Origin: a cyanobacterium endosymbiont of Rhopalodia gibba
GTDB taxonomy: Bacteria; Cyanobacteriota; Cyanobacteriia; Cyanobacteriales; Microcystaceae
Length of the DNA stretch: 64,000 bases
NCBI GenBank assembly: GCA_045159875.1
Contig: CP067995.1
Coordinates: forward strand, 1,888,001-1,952,000
Direction of reading: 5' to 3'
Under the pieces are notes generated by a model that did not search any database, was not told where the DNA came from, and was given only the letters and a program-made list of their open reading frames with translations. Made by a program: the position numbers and the translations under genes. Below are positions 42,391 through 56,799 of the stretch, piece after piece. Position 1 is the stretch's first letter, and each line of letters starts with the position of its first letter.

Positions 42391-43641
42391 CTACTTTGTT
42401 GAGACCGCCCGTAATAGTATAATAGGATTTAAAGGAGAAAACCGAGTTAAATTACCGGCGGAGGCAGAACGAGAAACTTGTAGGTTTAATAGCTGATAAT
42501 CCCAGGATTTTTTCTTAAACCAGTCCACAGCAATAGCTAAGTTTTCTAATGTCGCTAGTGCTATAACTAAGATTCCATCTTCAGCTAACCTATCTTTACA
42601 AACTTCTAAAATTGGAATAATGTTTCCCCCACTTCCTCCCATAAAAATACGATGCGGTTGGGGTAAATTAGCTAGAATATTGGGGGCTTTTCCATAAATG
42701 GGAACAACATTAAAAGCTTTAAGACGCTGGCAGTTTTTTTTAATTAATGCAATTCCGACTGCTGTTTTTTCTAGGGCATAAATTTTGGAATTAGGACATA
42801 ACCTGGCAATTTCAACAGATACAGACCCTGTTCCTGCACCAACATCCCAAACAATTTGTTTATTCTGTAGGGATAATTCTCCCAGAATGCTAATGCGAAT
42901 TTCTCGTTTTGTAATCAATCCTGGTCTATCTTTAAAGGTAGAAAATAAGTAATCCGGCAAGCCAAATAAAGGTAAGTGATTAAAATCAATTTCTAAAAAG
43001 TTATTTAAAGGCTGTTGTAAGGCAACAATAATATTAAGAGAGGCAAATACATCAGGGTTCTTTCCTGATAGTTCCTTGGCAGAAAAAGACTGTATCTTTT
43101 CCGAAGAATCTCCTAAATTTTCACAAACTAAAAATTTATAATCATAAGGCAAATTTAAACTAAGATAAAGACGAGCAATTACTGATGGATTATTATTGTG
43201 ATCTGTTAAGATAGCAATTTTGTTAACTCCTTGTTTAAATAGGGGAATCAAGTTATCTATTTCCCGTCCATGAACGCTAACAATTTTAGTATCTTGCCAG
43301 GGTATTTTTAGGCTATTAAATGCTAATTGTATACTACTTATATGAGGATAGAACGTTAAATCTTTTACTGGAAAATAATCTATTAATAATCGTCCTAACC
43401 CAAAAAAAAATGGGTCTCCACTCACTAAGATAACAATACAATTGTGATTGTCTTTTTCTTTATTAATTTTTTCGATAGTTTCAAGTAAATCCCTCATAAC
43501 TATTATTTGAGCAGGATGCTCAGAAAAGTAGCTTAAGTGCCGTTTACTTCCAACCAATAATGTAGCTTTATTGACAATTTCTTGCACTGGTTTAGTTAGT
43601 CCTATTACTCCGTTTAAACCAATTCCTATGACTTTAATCAT
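42391..43641 (-). CDS. cbiET: Bifunctional cobalt-precorrin-7 C5 / precorrin-6B C15 methyltransferase
   Basis: LVSGDPFFFG, VSVHGR, ITKREIR and WDVGAGTGSVSVE motifs. Confidence 0.92.
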   Translation of the reverse strand: MIKVIGIGLNGVIGLTKPVQEIVNKATLLVGSKRHLSYFSEHPAQIIVMRDLLETIEKINKEKDNHNCIVILVSGDPFFFGLGRLLIDYFPVKDLTFYPHISSIQLAFNSLKIPWQDTKIVSVHGREIDNLIPLFKQGVNKIAILTDHNNNPSVIARLYLSLNLPYDYKFLVCENLGDSSEKIQSFSAKELSGKNPDVFASLNIIVALQQPLNNFLEIDFNHLPLFGLPDYLFSTFKDRPGLITKREIRISILGELSLQNKQIVWDVGAGTGSVSVEIARLCPNSKIYALEKTAVGIALIKKNCQRLKAFNVVPIYGKAPNILANLPQPHRIFMGGSGGNIIPILEVCKDRLAEDGILVIALATLENLAIAVDWFKKKSWDYQLLNLQVSRSASAGNLTRFSPLNPIILLRAVSTK

Positions 43642-43652
43642 AACTATCTTTT

Positions 43653-44291
43653 TTAAAAAAGGTCATCTATTTGTTTATCATTTTGCTGATATGCCAAGAT
43701 CAATAAAGCATTAATAATAGCGGATGCAACTGCTGATCCTCCTTTACGACCTTCAACTCTAATCTGAGGAATGCTGATTTTAGCCAATATTTTTTTTGAG
43801 TGAACTACAGAAACAAAACCAACAGGGCAACCAATAATCAAGGTTGGTTTAACTTTAGAAGTGACTAATTCTTTACATAAAGCTATTAAAGCAGTGGGGG
43901 CATTTCCAATCACATAAATAGCTTGAGGATATTGGTTAAAACAATTTAATAATCCAGTTTCGGTACGAGTTTTTCCAGGTAGGACATTGCTGACTTGTTC
44001 TATAGCAGCAATAATAGGATTTTGAAACGTTTTACCAACTAAAGTGGAAACTCCATGTTTAACCATCGTAACATCGGTTATAATGGTCTCTCCTTGGGAC
44101 AAAGATTTGATGGCTTGAGTAATCGCATCAGGACTAAATTTAAGTAAATCAATAAAATCAAAATCTGCCGTAGAATGGATAACACGACGAGCGATCGCAT
44201 ACTCAAATTTATTAAGAGTATGGTCTCCAATTTCACGATCAATAATCGCAAAACTTTTTTCAACAATTGGATGATTAAATTGTTGGTTCAT
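43653..44291 (-). CDS. cobH: Precorrin-8X / cobalt-precorrin-8 methylmutase
   Basis: SFAIIDREI, RVIHSTADF, IGNAPTAL and GRKGGSAVASAIINAL motifs. Confidence 0.93.
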   Translation of the reverse strand: MNQQFNHPIVEKSFAIIDREIGDHTLNKFEYAIARRVIHSTADFDFIDLLKFSPDAITQAIKSLSQGETIITDVTMVKHGVSTLVGKTFQNPIIAAIEQVSNVLPGKTRTETGLLNCFNQYPQAIYVIGNAPTALIALCKELVTSKVKPTLIIGCPVGFVSVVHSKKILAKISIPQIRVEGRKGGSAVASAIINALLILAYQQNDKQIDDLF

Positions 44292-49772: not shown

Positions 49773-49899
49773 AGATTAAGCTGTTTGTTATCTGAATTTA
49801 TAATGTTGACTGTGAGAGAATTTTGGAGCAGAAAAACGTTAAACGTCTATACTCAAATCTCCAATAAGCGATTCAAACGCATAAAAGCTTAACCATTAA

Positions 49900-51462
49900 C
49901 TACTCATCAAGGGATTTATCTTTAACTCCGCGAACAATACGGGAAAATTCGTTTTTTTCATCAATGGTAATTCGAGTGGGAGAACCACTGATGATGCCTT
50001 CGTAATTACGGAATGAATCCTGAATTCTTGGACCGCCTTGATCAATGGTGTATTCTCGAATCCCTTTATCATGCCAGGACCCTCGCATTTTAAAGACATT
50101 AATTGCTCTGGACATTTCCCCTCGAATTTCCACATATTGCAGCATGAGAATGGTATCAGTAATGGTGGAAATATGAGATTCCGTAATAGAATGAGAGCCC
50201 ATAAATTGATCAGTTGTGTTAGTAAAAAACCCTGTAATTTCTTCTTGTTTTGCGTAACCTGTTACCCCAATTACAAACTGACGAAAGGCATTATTAGTAA
50301 CTCCTCTTGCTAATGCTGAGAGAGAATCAATAGCAATTCGTGACGGTTTAAATTCAGAAATTTCTGATTTAATGATCTGTAAATGATCTTCTAATCCTGT
50401 AGATTCGGGATAGCTACATAATAATTTTAGTAGTCCCTTCCGTTCCATGTCTTCAAAATCAATACCCCAGGAAAAAGCATTTCGAGATAATTGGGCACGA
50501 GACTCTTCATACGCAAATAAAATTGACCTTTCTCCTTGACGACAACCTTCTTCTAAAAACTTACTTACCAGCAAAGTTTTACCAGTTCCTGTTGCTCCAG
50601 TCGCCAGAATAATTGAGTCTTTAAAAAAGCCTCCTCCACACATTTCATCAAGAGTTTTAATCCCAGAAGAAGCTCGAGTATTTGAAGAACGCTGAGTAAG
50701 TCGCATAGCTCCTAACGGAAAAATATTAATTCCATCATCAGTAATAGTGAAAGGATATTCTCCTTTCATATGGGTTGTCCCGCGCAATTTAAGGATTTCA
50801 GCTGTTCTTCGACGACGTTCTCCTTCTAAAACATTTCGTAAAATAACTACATTATCAGAAACGAATTCTTCTACCCCAAAACGAGCGATCTGCCCGTATT
50901 CTTCAACCCGTTCTGTAGTCATAATTGAAGTAACCTCTAGGAGTTTTAACCGTGCTACTAAACGGAAAATCTCTCGACGTACCACGGAGGCTGCATCGTA
51001 TTGTTGAAAAACCGCCGTTACTGAATCAATAGAAACAAGTTTTGCTTTATACTTGTAAATTGCATACTGGATACGTTCAATTAGAGCTGACAAATCAAAA
51101 CTTCCTACCACTTCTTGTCCATCAGGATCAGGGGAAGCATCAAGAATAAATAGTTGACCTTTATCAATAATCTCTTGTAAATCCCAACCAAAACTATAGG
51201 CATTTTGAATAACGTCTGCTGGCGATTCCTCAAAGGTTACAAATAATCCCGGATAATCAAAATATTTAATCCCATGGTAGAGAAATTGAATTGCTAGTAA
51301 CGTTTTACCAGTTCCTGATGTTCCACTCACCAAGGTGGTTCTTCCAAGAGGAAGTCCGCCATGGCTAATTTCATCAAACCCTTCAATCATAGTCCGAATC
51401 TTACGGACTCCTTTGGGAGGTAGTTTTTCTGATGTTTGCCCGTTAGGAAGCGGTTCATTCAT
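49900..51462 (-). CDS. kaiC: Circadian clock kinase KaiC
   Basis: Two RecA-like domains (GTSGTGKT, GATGTGKT); phosphosite motif SHISTITD intact. Confidence 0.98.
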   Translation of the reverse strand: MNEPLPNGQTSEKLPPKGVRKIRTMIEGFDEISHGGLPLGRTTLVSGTSGTGKTLLAIQFLYHGIKYFDYPGLFVTFEESPADVIQNAYSFGWDLQEIIDKGQLFILDASPDPDGQEVVGSFDLSALIERIQYAIYKYKAKLVSIDSVTAVFQQYDAASVVRREIFRLVARLKLLEVTSIMTTERVEEYGQIARFGVEEFVSDNVVILRNVLEGERRRRTAEILKLRGTTHMKGEYPFTITDDGINIFPLGAMRLTQRSSNTRASSGIKTLDEMCGGGFFKDSIILATGATGTGKTLLVSKFLEEGCRQGERSILFAYEESRAQLSRNAFSWGIDFEDMERKGLLKLLCSYPESTGLEDHLQIIKSEISEFKPSRIAIDSLSALARGVTNNAFRQFVIGVTGYAKQEEITGFFTNTTDQFMGSHSITESHISTITDTILMLQYVEIRGEMSRAINVFKMRGSWHDKGIREYTIDQGGPRIQDSFRNYEGIISGSPTRITIDEKNEFSRIVRGVKDKSLDE

Positions 51463-51574
51463 TGTTGATTTATTAATTCTTCTTATTAAAGATTAACGAC
51501 AATTTAATTTAAGATGTAGAGATATGCAAGTTTGTCTTGAATATATATACTAGCAAACAACGTGGAGATTTCTT

Positions 51575-51889
51575 TTACGAATTATCTTCTTTTTCTTTGA
51601 TTTCTTCATAAAGAAGATCTAAGCCAATAAGAATTTTTTCTCTATCTGAAAGATCGCCTATAATTTTACGAACAGGGGGAGGAAGAATTTTAGCTAAGGT
51701 GGGGGTTGCTGAAATTTTATCTTCCTCAGCTAAGCGAAGGTTTTTTAGCACATCAATAAGTTTGAGAGCATAAACTCCTCTAAATTCATCTTCGAAAATA
51801 TTTTTAAGCATTTTCAAAGCTCTGACAGAGTTGGTGGTATTGCCTGCTACATAAAGCTTAAGAACATAGGTTTTTTAAAAGTTGATCAT
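51575..51889 (-). pseudogene. kaiB: kaiB with a premature stop at codon 5
   Basis: ATG ATC AAC TTT TAA AAA ACC TAT GTT CTT AAG CTT TAT GTA GCA GGC = [15 protein letters not shown]. The ORF track only captures an 80-aa truncated form. Confidence 0.88.
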
Positions 51890-52190
51890 CGCCTAAAAAT
51901 TAGTATATTTTGAGATCTTGTTTAAGAATATTTTTTGTATCTTTGTAGCCCAGCTACGATAAGTTCATGATGAACAAAAACTTAAGGTCTTACTTTGCAT
52001 GGCTTCCAAGACCTCAAAGACTTGTTTTTTATAAAAAACAGAGCCTGTATCTTTATACAATACAGTCAGAATAAAAGTATGATAAGTTATTAGTTACTAA
52101 CTTATCATACCTACTCGAGGAGAGCCAACTTTTTTATTTCTTAAAAGGTCTGGGATGGGAACAATGCCTTAATCTGTTTGGTAAAGTCAA

Positions 52191-53075
52191 TCAAACATAA
52201 AGATTTCCCCTGGGAACTGACCGACGATACATTTCTCCCAAATGTGCTAAAACATCAATGATAGTTAAGCGGTAATCTAAAAGAATTTCATCACTGCGGC
52301 CTTCTATCTTAAGCTGCTGAGAAAATTCGTCGATTAACTCCATGTGAATTTCTAAAATTTTAGAAATTGCAATATCGGCAAAAAAAGCTTTATTCACAAA
52401 CTTATCAATAAACTGGTTAATTTCAGTCTCATTACTAAAATAATTAAGAACAATTTTTCGATATTCTTCAGTCAAATGTTTGATAAGTTCTTCTTGCTGT
52501 GTTTGAGAAAGATTTCGAAAAAAATGTTTGGGATTTCTCTTATAAAACACCCCTAAATAGCCCAGTCTTTCCTTAAGTTTTTCCGCCAACCGACGTTGTT
52601 GTAAGAGCAGAAAACTTAACTGTTTATCAGGAACTAAGGCTTCGGGCAAGGAAACTGGACTTTTCACTAAAGAACAACTTGGTCCCAAACGTAAAAACTG
52701 CGCAATGGCTAGCTCAAGAGATTTCTCCATATTATCCAAAGTATTTACTGGCTGTCGTACCTCCGCACTATGATAGAGGCACGTTAGGGTTCCAGTTTTT
52801 TCTGGAATAACGCCTGGATCTAACTCTGGTTCAATAATAACCACCGGAAGTAGGGTTCCTTGTTCGTAAAGTTGATTAAATAAAGGAGAGACTGTAGTTT
52901 TTTGAAAAATAACGAGACAGTCAATTTGTACGTCATGACTGTTTACTAAGTCGAATAACTCCTGAGAAGAGTCAACTAGTTGAATAGAATAGGATTTACT
53001 GCTCAGAATATTCGTCAAATGCTGGGCAATACGGTGATTACTGATATAGAGACAAATTGATAATCTAGATTGCAA
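52191..53075 (-). CDS. kaiA: Circadian clock protein KaiA
   Basis: LYHSAEV, QQRRLAEKLKERLGYLGV and LLDYRLTIIDVLAHLGEMYRRS motifs. Confidence 0.96.
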   Translation of the reverse strand: MQSRLSICLYISNHRIAQHLTNILSSKSYSIQLVDSSQELFDLVNSHDVQIDCLVIFQKTTVSPLFNQLYEQGTLLPVVIIEPELDPGVIPEKTGTLTCLYHSAEVRQPVNTLDNMEKSLELAIAQFLRLGPSCSLVKSPVSLPEALVPDKQLSFLLLQQRRLAEKLKERLGYLGVFYKRNPKHFFRNLSQTQQEELIKHLTEEYRKIVLNYFSNETEINQFIDKFVNKAFFADIAISKILEIHMELIDEFSQQLKIEGRSDEILLDYRLTIIDVLAHLGEMYRRSVPRGNLYV

Positions 53076-53294
53076 GGTTTTAAGATTAAGAACTAGATCA
53101 CTAGAAAATTAGTAAAGAACAAACTGAATAGTATCAGCAATGCCTTCCCATAAAAGTTAACATAAATACTTTGTAAACACAAATACTTTCAAATTAGATA
53201 ATTCATGGTCTTTGACTAAACTCTCTAAAAAAAAATTAAGCGAGCGCTTACTAGTTGACTAGTATCAATTTTTCGGCGGAGAAATAGATCTGCA

Positions 53295-54240: not shown

Positions 54241-56799
54241 TTGGACAGAATCACCCCCGTTAGGCTGATGCTGACACTAAAACAATTTCTGTACCCTGTC
54301 CCGATTTGTCAATCTTCTATCACCATTCAAGAGATTACTACCCTATTTCGCTCAGGGAACTATGAGGGAGTAGTAATGGTAGATTGTGCCCAAAAGCCAT
54401 TAGGTATGGTCTCTGTCCATTATCTTCTTTCTTTACTGCTACAACAGTCTTTCGAGGCTATGTCTTCATCGTCTAGGTTTTCTCAAAAAAATAGTCAAGT
54501 ATCTCAATCGTTGACGCTAGATAACTTGGAGAACTTCTTAACTCCTTTAGTACTTATTCCTGATGACTTAAAAGTAATAGATTTTTCTGTCTATTTACAA
54601 GACAAAAATATTGACCCAACAACTTCTCCCACCTATGGACTTGTGAATGATAGTGGAAATTTTCAGGGACTTCTCGATAGCCGAAAATTGCTAAAAGCTT
54701 TTTTGACTCAAACCCTTCCTATTGCCCCTCAACCGTCTTCATTATTCGCCTCAGGATCGTTACTGATAGAATTGTTAGAGCCATTTCCCCTACCCGTTAT
54801 ATTACAAACAAAACAGGGAAATATAATACAACAAAATTACACGTGGCGTGAGCAAATTGGGCAGTTGATTCTCCCCAATAATGCTATTGTTTGCTTTTTA
54901 TCAAGCAAAAAACTACAATCCCTCTCAGATCAAGTTGTCGCAGTTGCCCAAACTCCCACCTTCCACTTTCCTTCACCCTACTACTTAGCAGACCGCTCTT
55001 CTCTAACGACTCACCCTTCTTGTTCTCAATGGTTTCAATCTGTTCCTGAGAAGTGTAACCCTCAAGATTTTCTAACCAATACCAATTCGTTACATTCTCT
55101 TTCGCCTTCTCCTGGCTCATTGATCGATCATAATCTGAGCAAAGAAAGAGTTTGCAAATTTGTTAGATGTCCCTTAAACACAAAAGATGGAGAAGTTTCT
55201 CTAGTCTTAGCCACTGATGTAACAGAACAGCAAAAGCTGTGTCAAGAATTAGCGGCAAAGAATGCTGATTTAGTTCAGCTCAATCGTCTCAAAGATGAAT
55301 TCCTCGCTTGTATTAGCCACGAGTTCAAGTCTCCTCTCACAGCAGTGCTGGGATTGTCGAGTCTTTTGAGGGAACAAAAAGTTGGTAAACTTAATCCTCG
55401 TCAAGTCCATTATGCCCAGTCAATTTACCGCAGTAGCCGTCAGTTAATGACTATAGTGAACGATTTACTTGATCTCACTCACTTAGAGACAGGGAAGCTT
55501 AAGTTAACCTTTATCTCACTTAATATCCGAAGTGTCTGTGAACGAGCCTACCATTCCATTGCTGAAAAATACCAGGACAAAATCGATAACTCCATATCAT
55601 TTTCCTTAGAAATAGAACCAGGATTAAAGTTTTTATTGGCCGATGAACTGCGTTTACATCAGATGTTAGTGCATTTATTAGATAATGCTATAAAATTTAG
55701 CAAATCTGCTGGATCAGTCGGCATAAAAGTAAATTACTGGGATAATTGGGTTGCGTTCAATGTTTGGGATACAGGCATTGGCATTCCTGAAGAATTCCAA
55801 CACTTGATCTTTCAGAAATTCCAAAAATTAGAAAATCCGTTGACCCGTAAATTAGAAGGGACTGGCTTAGGACTGGTACTAACTCAACGCTTAGCAAGAG
55901 CTCATGGGGGTGAGATCTCTTTTATTTCTAAAATAGGACAGGGAAGTCAGTTTACACTACTGTTGCCCCCTGATGCTAAATTTCAGGATAAGAAACATTA
56001 TCATCAATCTTCTCCAACTCCTTATCCCCTAGTGTTGATTGTCGAAGCCATTCCTCAATGTATAGAAAATTTAATGGGTAAGCTGAATGAATTAGGCTAT
56101 CGAGTGGTTATCGCCCGTACTGGCACAGACGCAGTGGAAAAAGCACGACGATTACGTCCCTATGCTATTTTGCTAAATCCCTTATTACCCTTACTATCGG
56201 GGTGGGACGTATTGACACTACTCAAATCTGATCCCCGAACTCGGAAAATTCGCGTCTTTATGACAACCACTGAGAATCGTCAACTTTTAAAAGAACGAAA
56301 TCAAGCGGACGGCTTTGTATCGGTTCCCCTCGATTCATCAGTGTTAAAAACAATTTTAGGGAAAGTTAATCCTCTAAAAAAGACTTCTGATCGTGCTTTA
56401 ACTGTATTAAGTCTTTGTCCTAACTGTCCTGATGACAAAACTAACCCTGTTCTATGCTCTCCCCTAAACTGGGCGTTAACGAACTTGTCCTCTCAATTCA
56501 ATCATCGTATTCTCGAAAGCGATGATCTCGAACAAGCACAAGTATTAATCAATGTTTGGCAAGTAGATGTAATAGTCTTAGATGGACGTTGTCTTGATGA
56601 TCCAACCGATTACGTACAATCACTTTCTGAACAATCCAGACTAGCTGAGTTACCCTTAGTCACCTTAGACCTAAAAACAACCAAAGCAGCCAATCGGGTT
56701 AAGAATTTATCTGTCTTTCCTTGCTTAATTCCTCGTAATCAGCAAAATAATCAGCAATTATGGCAGATAATTTCTATCGCTGTCTCAAGTACGCTTTAA
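54241..56799 (+). CDS. Hybrid sensor histidine kinase (CBS-like N-terminus, HisKA, HATPase, receiver-like domains)
   Basis: H-box FLACISHEFKSPL, N-box LLDNAIKF, DTGIGI and GTGLGL; receiver-like C-terminus. Confidence 0.9.
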   Translation: MDRITPVRLMLTLKQFLYPVPICQSSITIQEITTLFRSGNYEGVVMVDCAQKPLGMVSVHYLLSLLLQQSFEAMSSSSRFSQKNSQVSQSLTLDNLENFLTPLVLIPDDLKVIDFSVYLQDKNIDPTTSPTYGLVNDSGNFQGLLDSRKLLKAFLTQTLPIAPQPSSLFASGSLLIELLEPFPLPVILQTKQGNIIQQNYTWREQIGQLILPNNAIVCFLSSKKLQSLSDQVVAVAQTPTFHFPSPYYLADRSSLTTHPSCSQWFQSVPEKCNPQDFLTNTNSLHSLSPSPGSLIDHNLSKERVCKFVRCPLNTKDGEVSLVLATDVTEQQKLCQELAAKNADLVQLNRLKDEFLACISHEFKSPLTAVLGLSSLLREQKVGKLNPRQVHYAQSIYRSSRQLMTIVNDLLDLTHLETGKLKLTFISLNIRSVCERAYHSIAEKYQDKIDNSISFSLEIEPGLKFLLADELRLHQMLVHLLDNAIKFSKSAGSVGIKVNYWDNWVAFNVWDTGIGIPEEFQHLIFQKFQKLENPLTRKLEGTGLGLVLTQRLARAHGGEISFISKIGQGSQFTLLLPPDAKFQDKKHYHQSSPTPYPLVLIVEAIPQCIENLMGKLNELGYRVVIARTGTDAVEKARRLRPYAILLNPLLPLLSGWDVLTLLKSDPRTRKIRVFMTTTENRQLLKERNQADGFVSVPLDSSVLKTILGKVNPLKKTSDRALTVLSLCPNCPDDKTNPVLCSPLNWALTNLSSQFNHRILESDDLEQAQVLINVWQVDVIVLDGRCLDDPTDYVQSLSEQSRLAELPLVTLDLKTTKAANRVKNLSVFPCLIPRNQQNNQQLWQIISIAVSSTL

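Follow-up and report, generated by a model that had tools for sequence, protein, structure and literature searches.

The kaiABC locus of the Rhopalodia gibba endosymbiont

The circadian clock locus kaiABC was analyzed in a stretch of 64,000 nucleotides (nt) from the cyanobacterial endosymbiont (spheroid body) of Rhopalodia gibba (GenBank assembly GCA_045159875.1, contig CP067995.1, positions 1,888,001 to 1,952,000). This whole stretch is referred to as the window, and positions are those of the window unless another contig is named. The genome to which it belongs (G000) comprises 3,064,642 nt on 2 contigs and is 99.93% complete; its proteins fall into 90%-identity clusters together with entries labelled 'cyanobacterium endosymbiont of Rhopalodia/Epithemia'. 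The genes kaiA, kaiB and kaiC lie on the minus strand (Table 1). As stated in a preliminary description of this DNA, kaiA and kaiC are full length and kaiB is closed by a TAA stop at codon 5. The 99 residues downstream of the stop are recognized as KaiB by Pfam (PF07689, 91.2 bits, cut-off 27) and by the NCBIfam KaiB models (NF006798 / TIGR02654; 182.1 bits at a cut-off of 110 and 164 at a cut-off of 145.3). The sequence thus belongs to the KaiB family, but its frame is interrupted and it deviates at six positions that are invariant in orthologues of the free-living type.

At the stop site the window reads TTT TAA AAA, where the closest relatives have TTC AAA AAA. Since the length is unchanged, the lesion is a base substitution. 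It sits where a run of T meets a run of A, which agrees with the AAA-to-TAA change described earlier. No in-frame ATG, GTG or TTG is present between the stop and codon 25; the next candidates are the TTG at codon 25 itself and an ATG at codon 27. Because the first possible start lies at codon 25, a restarted KaiB would be made without its N-terminal strand, as anticipated in the preliminary description. The missing stretch is the first beta-strand of the thioredoxin-like KaiB fold.

Further replacements are spread over the remaining frame (L32F, V44L, P51L, Q52R, L60S, V86I and P19T). Invariance was judged on 25 orthologues of the free-living type, in which L32, V44, P51, Q52, L60 and V86 were each found 25 times and P19 23 times. 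The replacements listed in the preliminary description are real, but not all of them are unique to G000. T19 is present in all five reduced genomes of the genus (G000, G001, G003, G004 and G006; 2.5-3.1 Mb), R52 also occurs in G001 and G006, and S60 also in G006. M27 is not a sign of decay, because a solved Synechocystis KaiB has M27 too.

Table 1. Features at and around the kai locus and the elongated KaiB-family gene.
Feature	Position	Strand	Description
kaiA	52191-53075	minus	294 amino acids (aa), TTG start, N- and C-terminal domains; PF07688 206 bits, PF21714 136 bits
kaiA-kaiB spacer	51890-52190	unassigned	about 300 nt; dispersed repeat and palindrome (52077-52110)
kaiB pseudogene	51575-51889	minus	104 codons; TAA at codon 5 (51875-51877)
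Longest residual open reading frame (ORF) in the kaiB frame	51575-51817	minus	80 aa, TTG at codon 25, without N-terminal strand
kaiC	49900-51462	minus	520 aa, intact; TIGR02655 1007 bits, cut-off 546
Hybrid histidine kinase/receiver ORF	54241-56799	plus	852 aa, adjoins kaiA, intact here
416-aa ORF	42394-43641	minus	adjoins the 212-aa ORF
212-aa ORF	43656-44291	minus	adjoins the 416-aa ORF
Elongated KaiB-family gene	G000:C1:451963-452766	minus	267-aa frame, intact; annotated at about 252 aa in relatives

The kaiB stop is real, recent and polymorphic

The stop was compared between strains using assembled contigs of four public runs. X1 (a DNA run) and X3 (an Illumina RNA-seq run) stem from one shared sample, which is the possible or probable source of the genome, and are not biologically independent. 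Both contigs were identical to the window over 49800-53200, stop included. As the Illumina contig carries the stop, a long-read homopolymer error is ruled out. X5 is a metagenome of another study. It differs from the window at 4 of 3,396 aligned nt, none of them at 51877, and a 1,572-nt contig over the site retains the stop. In X6, from a third study, position 51877 shows A>T on the plus strand, which gives AAA (Lys) on the coding strand and an open frame at codon 5. The X6 strain is about 98% identical to the window, with 59 substitutions and an insertion of 8 nt over about 3,330 nt. A 26-nt degenerate motif for endosymbiont-type kaiB (Thr19 codon) had no match among JGI metagenome contigs. 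The kaiB stop is real, is present outside one sample and varies among close strains.

Possible routes around the stop were also considered. None of the 39 tRNAs of G000 is a suppressor tRNA (anticodon tta, cta or tca). A +1 slip by tRNA-Phe on the four T's ahead of the stop was rejected, as it leaves the kaiB frame and runs into a stop within about 10 codons. With a lesion seen in two studies, an excess of non-synonymous change and no recoding route, kaiB has the properties of a pseudogene.

Ten kaiB differences between the window and X6 were polarized with 4 outgroups. The window lineage gained K5stop, L32F, V44L, P51L and R100K, while X6 kept the ancestral residue at positions 5, 32, 44, 51 and 100; V86I was placed on the longer G000 branch. 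V44L is absent from X5 and hence arose after the stop. Between the window and X6, kaiB differs by 8 non-synonymous (N) and 2 synonymous (S) changes in 315 nt, compared to 3 N and 10 S in about 1,440 covered nt of kaiC (Fisher test, p=0.012). kaiC is thus not decaying like kaiB. That a strain of about 98% identity still has AAA and the ancestral residues indicates that the death of kaiB was very recent. The gene is a very young, real pseudogene; along the same short lineage it acquired 4-5 more replacements at sites that are otherwise invariant.

kaiA and kaiC are retained in full

KaiC aligned end to end with solved KaiC of the Protein Data Bank (PDB; E 5.5e-286), with query residues 17-517 corresponding to residues 16-516 of the Synechococcus elongatus chain, so that the numbering used here is that of S. 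elongatus plus one. The Walker lysines K53 and K295, the glutamate pairs E78/E79 and E319/E320, and T427, S432 and T433 were invariant in all 10 aligned sequences. The phosphosites S432/T433 correspond to S431/T432 of S. elongatus, and the earlier statement that they are kept holds for the catalytic residues as well. Among the relatives, kaiC was intact in 9 of 9 fetched and kaiA in 5 of 5 genomes searched. KaiA measures 294 aa in all five reduced genomes and 301-304 aa in five free-living relatives, a common C-terminal or internal shortening.

The spacer between kaiA and kaiB is enlarged relative to the free-living relative G002, where it measures about 105 nt. It contains a short dispersed repeat (about positions 55-240 of the query) with further copies in G000 and others in G001, G003 and G006 (many), and a near-perfect palindrome with 16-nt arms. 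Because spheroid-body genomes have been reported to be without mobile elements (PMC11131595), the repeat resembles a small relic of a miniature inverted-repeat transposable element or a regulatory repeat. An uninformative scan of the spacer yielded 4 promoter-like sites (2.5 expected), and the palindrome scored as a terminator-like site.

Other clock genes in the genome

No second short kaiB was found in the 3.06-Mb genome, as the preliminary description required for its reading. KaiB-domain matches were limited to sasA, an elongated KaiB-family gene, the kaiB pseudogene and a sub-threshold thioredoxin match. KaiC-family matches were kaiC, radA and two short, weak matches elsewhere, with no second kaiC among the identified genes. 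G000 lacks the second kaiB-kaiC operon that free-living relatives have, in agreement with Table S2 of Moulin et al. 2024 for other diazoplasts (PMC11070190).

Of the output genes suggested for a search, sasA, rpaA and a gene for a CikA-like kinase are present and intact. SasA (393 aa) scored 545 bits with NF006800 (cut-off 342). The rpaA product (248 aa) takes its name from cluster mates at 90%, and rpaB adjoins radA. A 763-aa protein of GAF-HisKA-HATPase-receiver type is CikA-like by architecture alone. No NCBIfam model specific for RpaA or CikA was passed by the candidate proteins, and a PDB sequence search with the 763-aa protein gave generic kinases only among the matches listed.

An intact elongated KaiB-family gene is present in G000 and in 4 of the 5 other genomes searched (G001, G004, G006 and G002); the G003 copy is broken by TGA and TAA stops. 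Its KaiB domain scored 93 bits with Pfam and 77.6 with NCBIfam KaiB, below the cut-off of 110, and is 45% identical to KaiB. The gene belongs to a widespread family (1,621 homologues at E<=1e-10). The N-terminal region of about 170 aa is conserved: among 60 invariant columns in 32 sequences most fall in that region. A survey by Schmelling et al. 2017 describes elongated KaiB with a conserved N-terminal extension of about 150 aa and unknown function in Oscillatoriophycideae and Nostocales (PMC5520375). The omega (dN/dS) of the gene in reduced genomes is 0.18-0.34.

A complex between residues 172-267 of the elongated protein and the CI domain of KaiC (17-255) was predicted with a score of 0.76, compared to 0.01 for the best of 3 controls; the mark used for this score is reached by 116 of 157 solved complexes and by 2 of 215 mismatched pairs. 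At least 98% of contacts were common to the runs, the partner had a pLDDT of at least 80, and the predicted interface lies on KaiC 107-134, the B-loop region. As KaiB-KaiC CI complexes have been solved (5jwq), the predicted docking may reflect likeness rather than binding.

A separate, older kaiB loss in a sister endosymbiont

The kaiB region was matched in 37 of 40 relatives searched, and an uninterrupted KaiB was found at 28 of 29 relatives' loci. Among the reduced genomes, kaiB is intact in G001, G004 and G006, where its omega is 0.00-0.08. In G003 it is interrupted by a stop at codon 29 and has lost 1 nt near codon 48. The 31 unique substitutions of G003 kaiB in 308 sites amount to about 0.10 changes per site, which equals the dS of the G003 branch (0.107). 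G000 has 9 unique substitutions in the same 308 sites and no lesion in common with G003; the two are sisters (bootstrap 92 with kaiA and kaiC, 100 with 9 neighbour genes). One ancestral event that killed kaiB in both was considered and is unlikely. The lack of a common lesion, the small number of changes in G000 (9 vs 31) and the ancestral state of X6 indicate two separate inactivations within one subclade, an old and a recent one. kaiB makes up only 315 of the 2,763 nt of the three kai genes; if each could be lost equally well, the chance that kaiB is the first to be hit in two independent cases would be about 1%.

The gene for the hybrid kinase next to kaiA has kept its place and its full frame in G001, G004 and G006 as well as in free-living G002. 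The G003 copy is wrecked: residues 1-308 contain 9 stops, residues 766-852 contain 4 stops and the middle is missing. That kaiB, the elongated KaiB gene and the kinase gene are all broken in G003 hints at a possible functional link of the kinase to the clock. Two adjoining ORFs elsewhere in the window are also reduced in G003. The 416-aa ORF is matched there at 57% over residues 79-318 and the 212-aa ORF at 73% over residues 68-209, both partial and of low identity. G001 and G006 have both ORFs at full length and G004 nearly so; the G003 versions are probably further G003-specific pseudogenes.

In G019, a UCYN-A-like relative of the same family with a genome of 1.5 Mb, the region G019:C5:75731-80278 holds an intact kaiC (79% identical). 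kaiA persists as a C-terminal relic with many stops (E 2e-13), 295 nt upstream of kaiC, and no trace of kaiB was found in these 295 nt.

Selection on the retained clock genes

Branch omega was determined from three-taxon Nei-Gojobori estimates, with 9 neighbour genes (3,051 codons) as controls. The control genes gave 0.154 (G000), 0.202 (G003), 0.113 (G006) and 0.164 (G001). For kaiC the values were 0.12, 0.21, 0.04 and 0.02, and for kaiA 0.52, 0.37, 0.14 and 0.18, in the same order. On the two branches without kaiB, rpaA had an omega of 0.02-0.03 (99% protein identity across the reduced genomes) and sasA of 0.15-0.19; the CikA-like gene had 0.41 in G000 and 0.18 in G003.

Branch counts of N and S changes and the Fisher tests on them were obtained by parsimony, and they are small counts handled with simple methods. 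On the G003 branch, kaiC acquired N20 : S18, which differs from the neutral expectation of 77% N (p=0.0009). In a neutral simulation at the rate of G003 kaiB, 7-10 stops were expected in kaiC and 4-6 in kaiA, and the probability of no stop was <=0.0005 for kaiC and <=0.015 for kaiA. No stop was observed in kaiC. As far as substitution patterns tell, kaiC, sasA and rpaA are under purifying selection in this subclade, and kaiA has kept an open frame in G000 and G003 alike.

Interpretation of the KaiB-less state

In S. elongatus, KaiA stimulates KaiC autophosphorylation and phosphorylated KaiC stimulates SasA; the KaiB ring on KaiC sequesters KaiA and recruits CikA as a phosphatase of RpaA, which turns the night programme off. 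Among the targets of RpaA are glycogen catabolism and the oxidative pentose phosphate pathway (this model follows bioRxiv 10.1101/283812). By analogy, KaiA would keep KaiC phosphorylated without KaiB, and SasA would have the CI site of KaiC uncontested. The KaiB ring that recruits CikA for RpaA dephosphorylation would never form. RpaA would then stay phosphorylated and the dusk/night regulon would stay on, i.e. sugar catabolism and the oxidative pentose phosphate pathway. In Crocosphaera-type diazotrophs this regulon would also include nitrogen fixation and respiration. For a non-photosynthetic, host-fed N2 fixer that is always in night mode, KaiB would be dispensable first and the switch-on axis would be retained.

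We therefore regard it as fairly probable, by analogy with S. elongatus, that KaiB is a dispensable off switch and that the KaiA-KaiC-SasA-RpaA axis is kept, most likely for signalling that does not oscillate or that is driven by the host or by metabolites. A hyperphosphorylated, non-oscillating state of KaiC, as proposed in the preliminary description, is plausible on the grounds of S. elongatus biochemistry. A constitutive night-mode output is likewise plausible by this analogy and is partly supported by the pattern of retention. The suggestion that loss of KaiB was needed to release N2 fixation from night gating did not stand. Diazoplasts reported to have the complete kai set already fix N2 in daytime or continuously (PMC11070190), so that kaiB loss is not needed for daytime fixation. 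In our view, the loss was permitted by the lifestyle and is not the cause of daytime N2 fixation.

Several observations weigh against a retained, selected axis or speak for plain clock decay, in which the whole Kai oscillator is unneeded, kaiB broke first, and kaiA and kaiC are to follow, as in the UCYN-A-like genome with kaiC as the sole survivor, without any selected KaiB-less function. The omega of kaiC is higher on both kaiB-less branches, where it reaches the ordinary level of neighbour genes. Compared to G006 and G001 combined, the Fisher test gave p=2e-5 (G003) and p=0.03 (G000) for kaiC, and p=0.057 and 0.52 for kaiA, whose omega is also raised. In G003, neutrality is not rejected for kaiA (N21 : S10, p=0.11), KaiC deviates at 13 or more alignment columns in which the 10 sequences otherwise agree, and the CikA-like kinase has remained intact despite the loss of its proposed partner. 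For G000, selection on kaiA and kaiC after the loss is not demonstrable, because the time since the stop is too short. A kaiABC triple deletion of S. elongatus retains ample phosphorylated RpaA (10.1101/283812); hence the proposed state need not depend on KaiA and KaiC. The kaiA relic, missing kaiB and intact kaiC of G019 also speak for decay. From the raised omega values, the whole oscillator may be relaxing. Some relaxation on the G000 and G003 branches thus qualifies the earlier expectation that only kaiB decays. Nevertheless, we consider plain decay rather unlikely: the G003 kaiC gene has stayed without a stop while kaiB changed at the neutral rate, its N : S ratio rejects neutrality, kaiC is retained even in the 1.5-Mb genome of G019, and kaiB, the smallest of the kai genes, was on both occasions the first to be hit.

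Daytime N2 fixation by diazoplasts that have kaiB likewise counts against the night-mode reading, and so does the elongated KaiB paralogue. This paralogue, intact in G000, may bind KaiC, to judge by the modelled complex, and could do so in place of KaiB, in which case the oscillator of G000 may still run. By this model G000, unlike G003, may not be functionally free of KaiB, and the system described earlier as KaiA-KaiC only is not strictly so. The intact frame in most genomes searched, the Pfam match, the size of the family and the docking score favour such a substitution. Yet the elongated gene coexists with canonical kaiB in all free-living relatives examined and hence is not redundant there. 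It is below the NCBIfam cut-offs, its omega in reduced genomes is that given above, its function is listed as unknown in PMC5520375, and it was lost in G003 too. We judge this substitution improbable. An artefact at the T/A run, or a KaiB still produced by readthrough, frameshifting or re-initiation, has next to no likelihood. The position of the change at the run boundary and the possible origin of X1 and X3 from the genome's own sample would allow it. The stop is nevertheless found in Illumina data and in another study, X6 shows strain variation at the very site, and four further radical replacements stand beside the stop. The length is kept, so that a frameshift would leave the kaiB frame, and neither a suppressor tRNA nor an in-frame start ahead of codon 25 is present.

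The retention of a KaiA-KaiC-SasA-RpaA axis may tentatively be extended. KaiB loss could be a repeated step, permitted by selection or even selected, that turns a Crocosphaera-type diazotroph into an N2-fixing organelle, with the oscillator becoming a constitutive night-mode driver in which KaiA holds KaiC and SasA holds RpaA in the phosphorylated form (catabolism and nif on). The order of decay would be KaiB (G000 recently, G003 long ago), then KaiA (the G019 relic), with KaiC, SasA and RpaA kept. We put this forward as a speculative possibility. If true, the two alleles in closely related host strains (the stop in the window and X5, the open frame in X6) would offer an isogenic-like natural comparison for the role of KaiB in an endosymbiont.

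The combination of kaiA and kaiC without KaiB is very rare in cyanobacteria, and G000 was caught while the allele still varies, which makes the KaiB-less state testable. Abresch et al. 2024 found diel transcription of the R. gibba spheroid body dampened and left circadian disruption to be determined; the term 'kai' is absent from their main text (PMC11131595). The loss of kaiB is a concrete candidate for this question. It shows which parts an organelle in the making keeps (KaiC, SasA and RpaA constrained, kaiA open) and which it drops first (KaiB), and it bears on how the timing of host and endosymbiont become coupled.

Comparison with known systems

The closest known case is the spheroid body of Epithemia turgida, from the same endosymbiont group, which has kaiA and kaiC and, like G000, a non-functional kaiB. 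In the survey of Schmelling et al. 2017, 2 of 94 genomes are without kaiB and only one of these has kaiA, a cyanobacterial endosymbiont (PMC5520375). For the diazoplast of E. turgida, Table S2 of Moulin et al. 2024 marks both KaiB and the KaiB-family protein as 'pseudogene?', while the diazoplast of E. clementina retained one copy of each kai gene (PMC11070190). The survey sentence and the Table S2 entry were the only published mentions of kaiB loss in such endosymbionts that we found; it is a subject in none of the other titles and abstracts listed. G003 shows exactly the E. turgida state: neither kaiB nor the elongated gene is whole. G000 differs from the E. turgida spheroid body in that its kaiB was closed by one nonsense codon of recent date, for which close strains still differ, and in that the elongated paralogue and the hybrid kinase are intact; from G003 it differs by its separate lesions. 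The KaiB-less, KaiA-containing state, with kaiA and kaiC intact and kaiB a pseudogene, is thus already known but barely described in a sister endosymbiont, and G000 is a second, independent and much younger case.

The preliminary description had held that reduced clocks lose KaiA and not KaiB. The endosymbiont listed in 2017 contradicts this, as does UCYN-A, which is without kaiA and kaiB (PMC8139342). In UCYN-A and G019, genome reduction has likewise removed oscillator parts while kaiC stays, and G000 could represent an earlier stage of the UCYN-A end state, with an order of loss that we infer. Compared to Prochlorococcus, which has KaiB and KaiC and no KaiA, G000 is the reverse, with KaiA kept and KaiB lost.

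The three-protein oscillator of S. elongatus PCC 7942 shares with G000 the order kaiA-kaiB-kaiC, a two-domain KaiA (PF21714 and PF07688) and a 520-aa KaiC with all catalytic and phosphosite residues (Walker A lysines, Glu pairs and Ser/Thr phosphosites). On the output side, SasA, RpaA and a protein of CikA-like architecture are also found in G000. A functional KaiB is lacking in G000, where the frame is cut at codon 5 and no other short kaiB exists; G000 is moreover a non-photosynthetic endosymbiont. Laboratory strains of S. elongatus with a kaiB null mutation are expected to be arrhythmic and to have highly phosphorylated KaiC. They have KaiA and KaiC without KaiB, as in G000, whereas G000 carries a natural allele in an obligate endosymbiont that has an extra, elongated KaiB paralogue.

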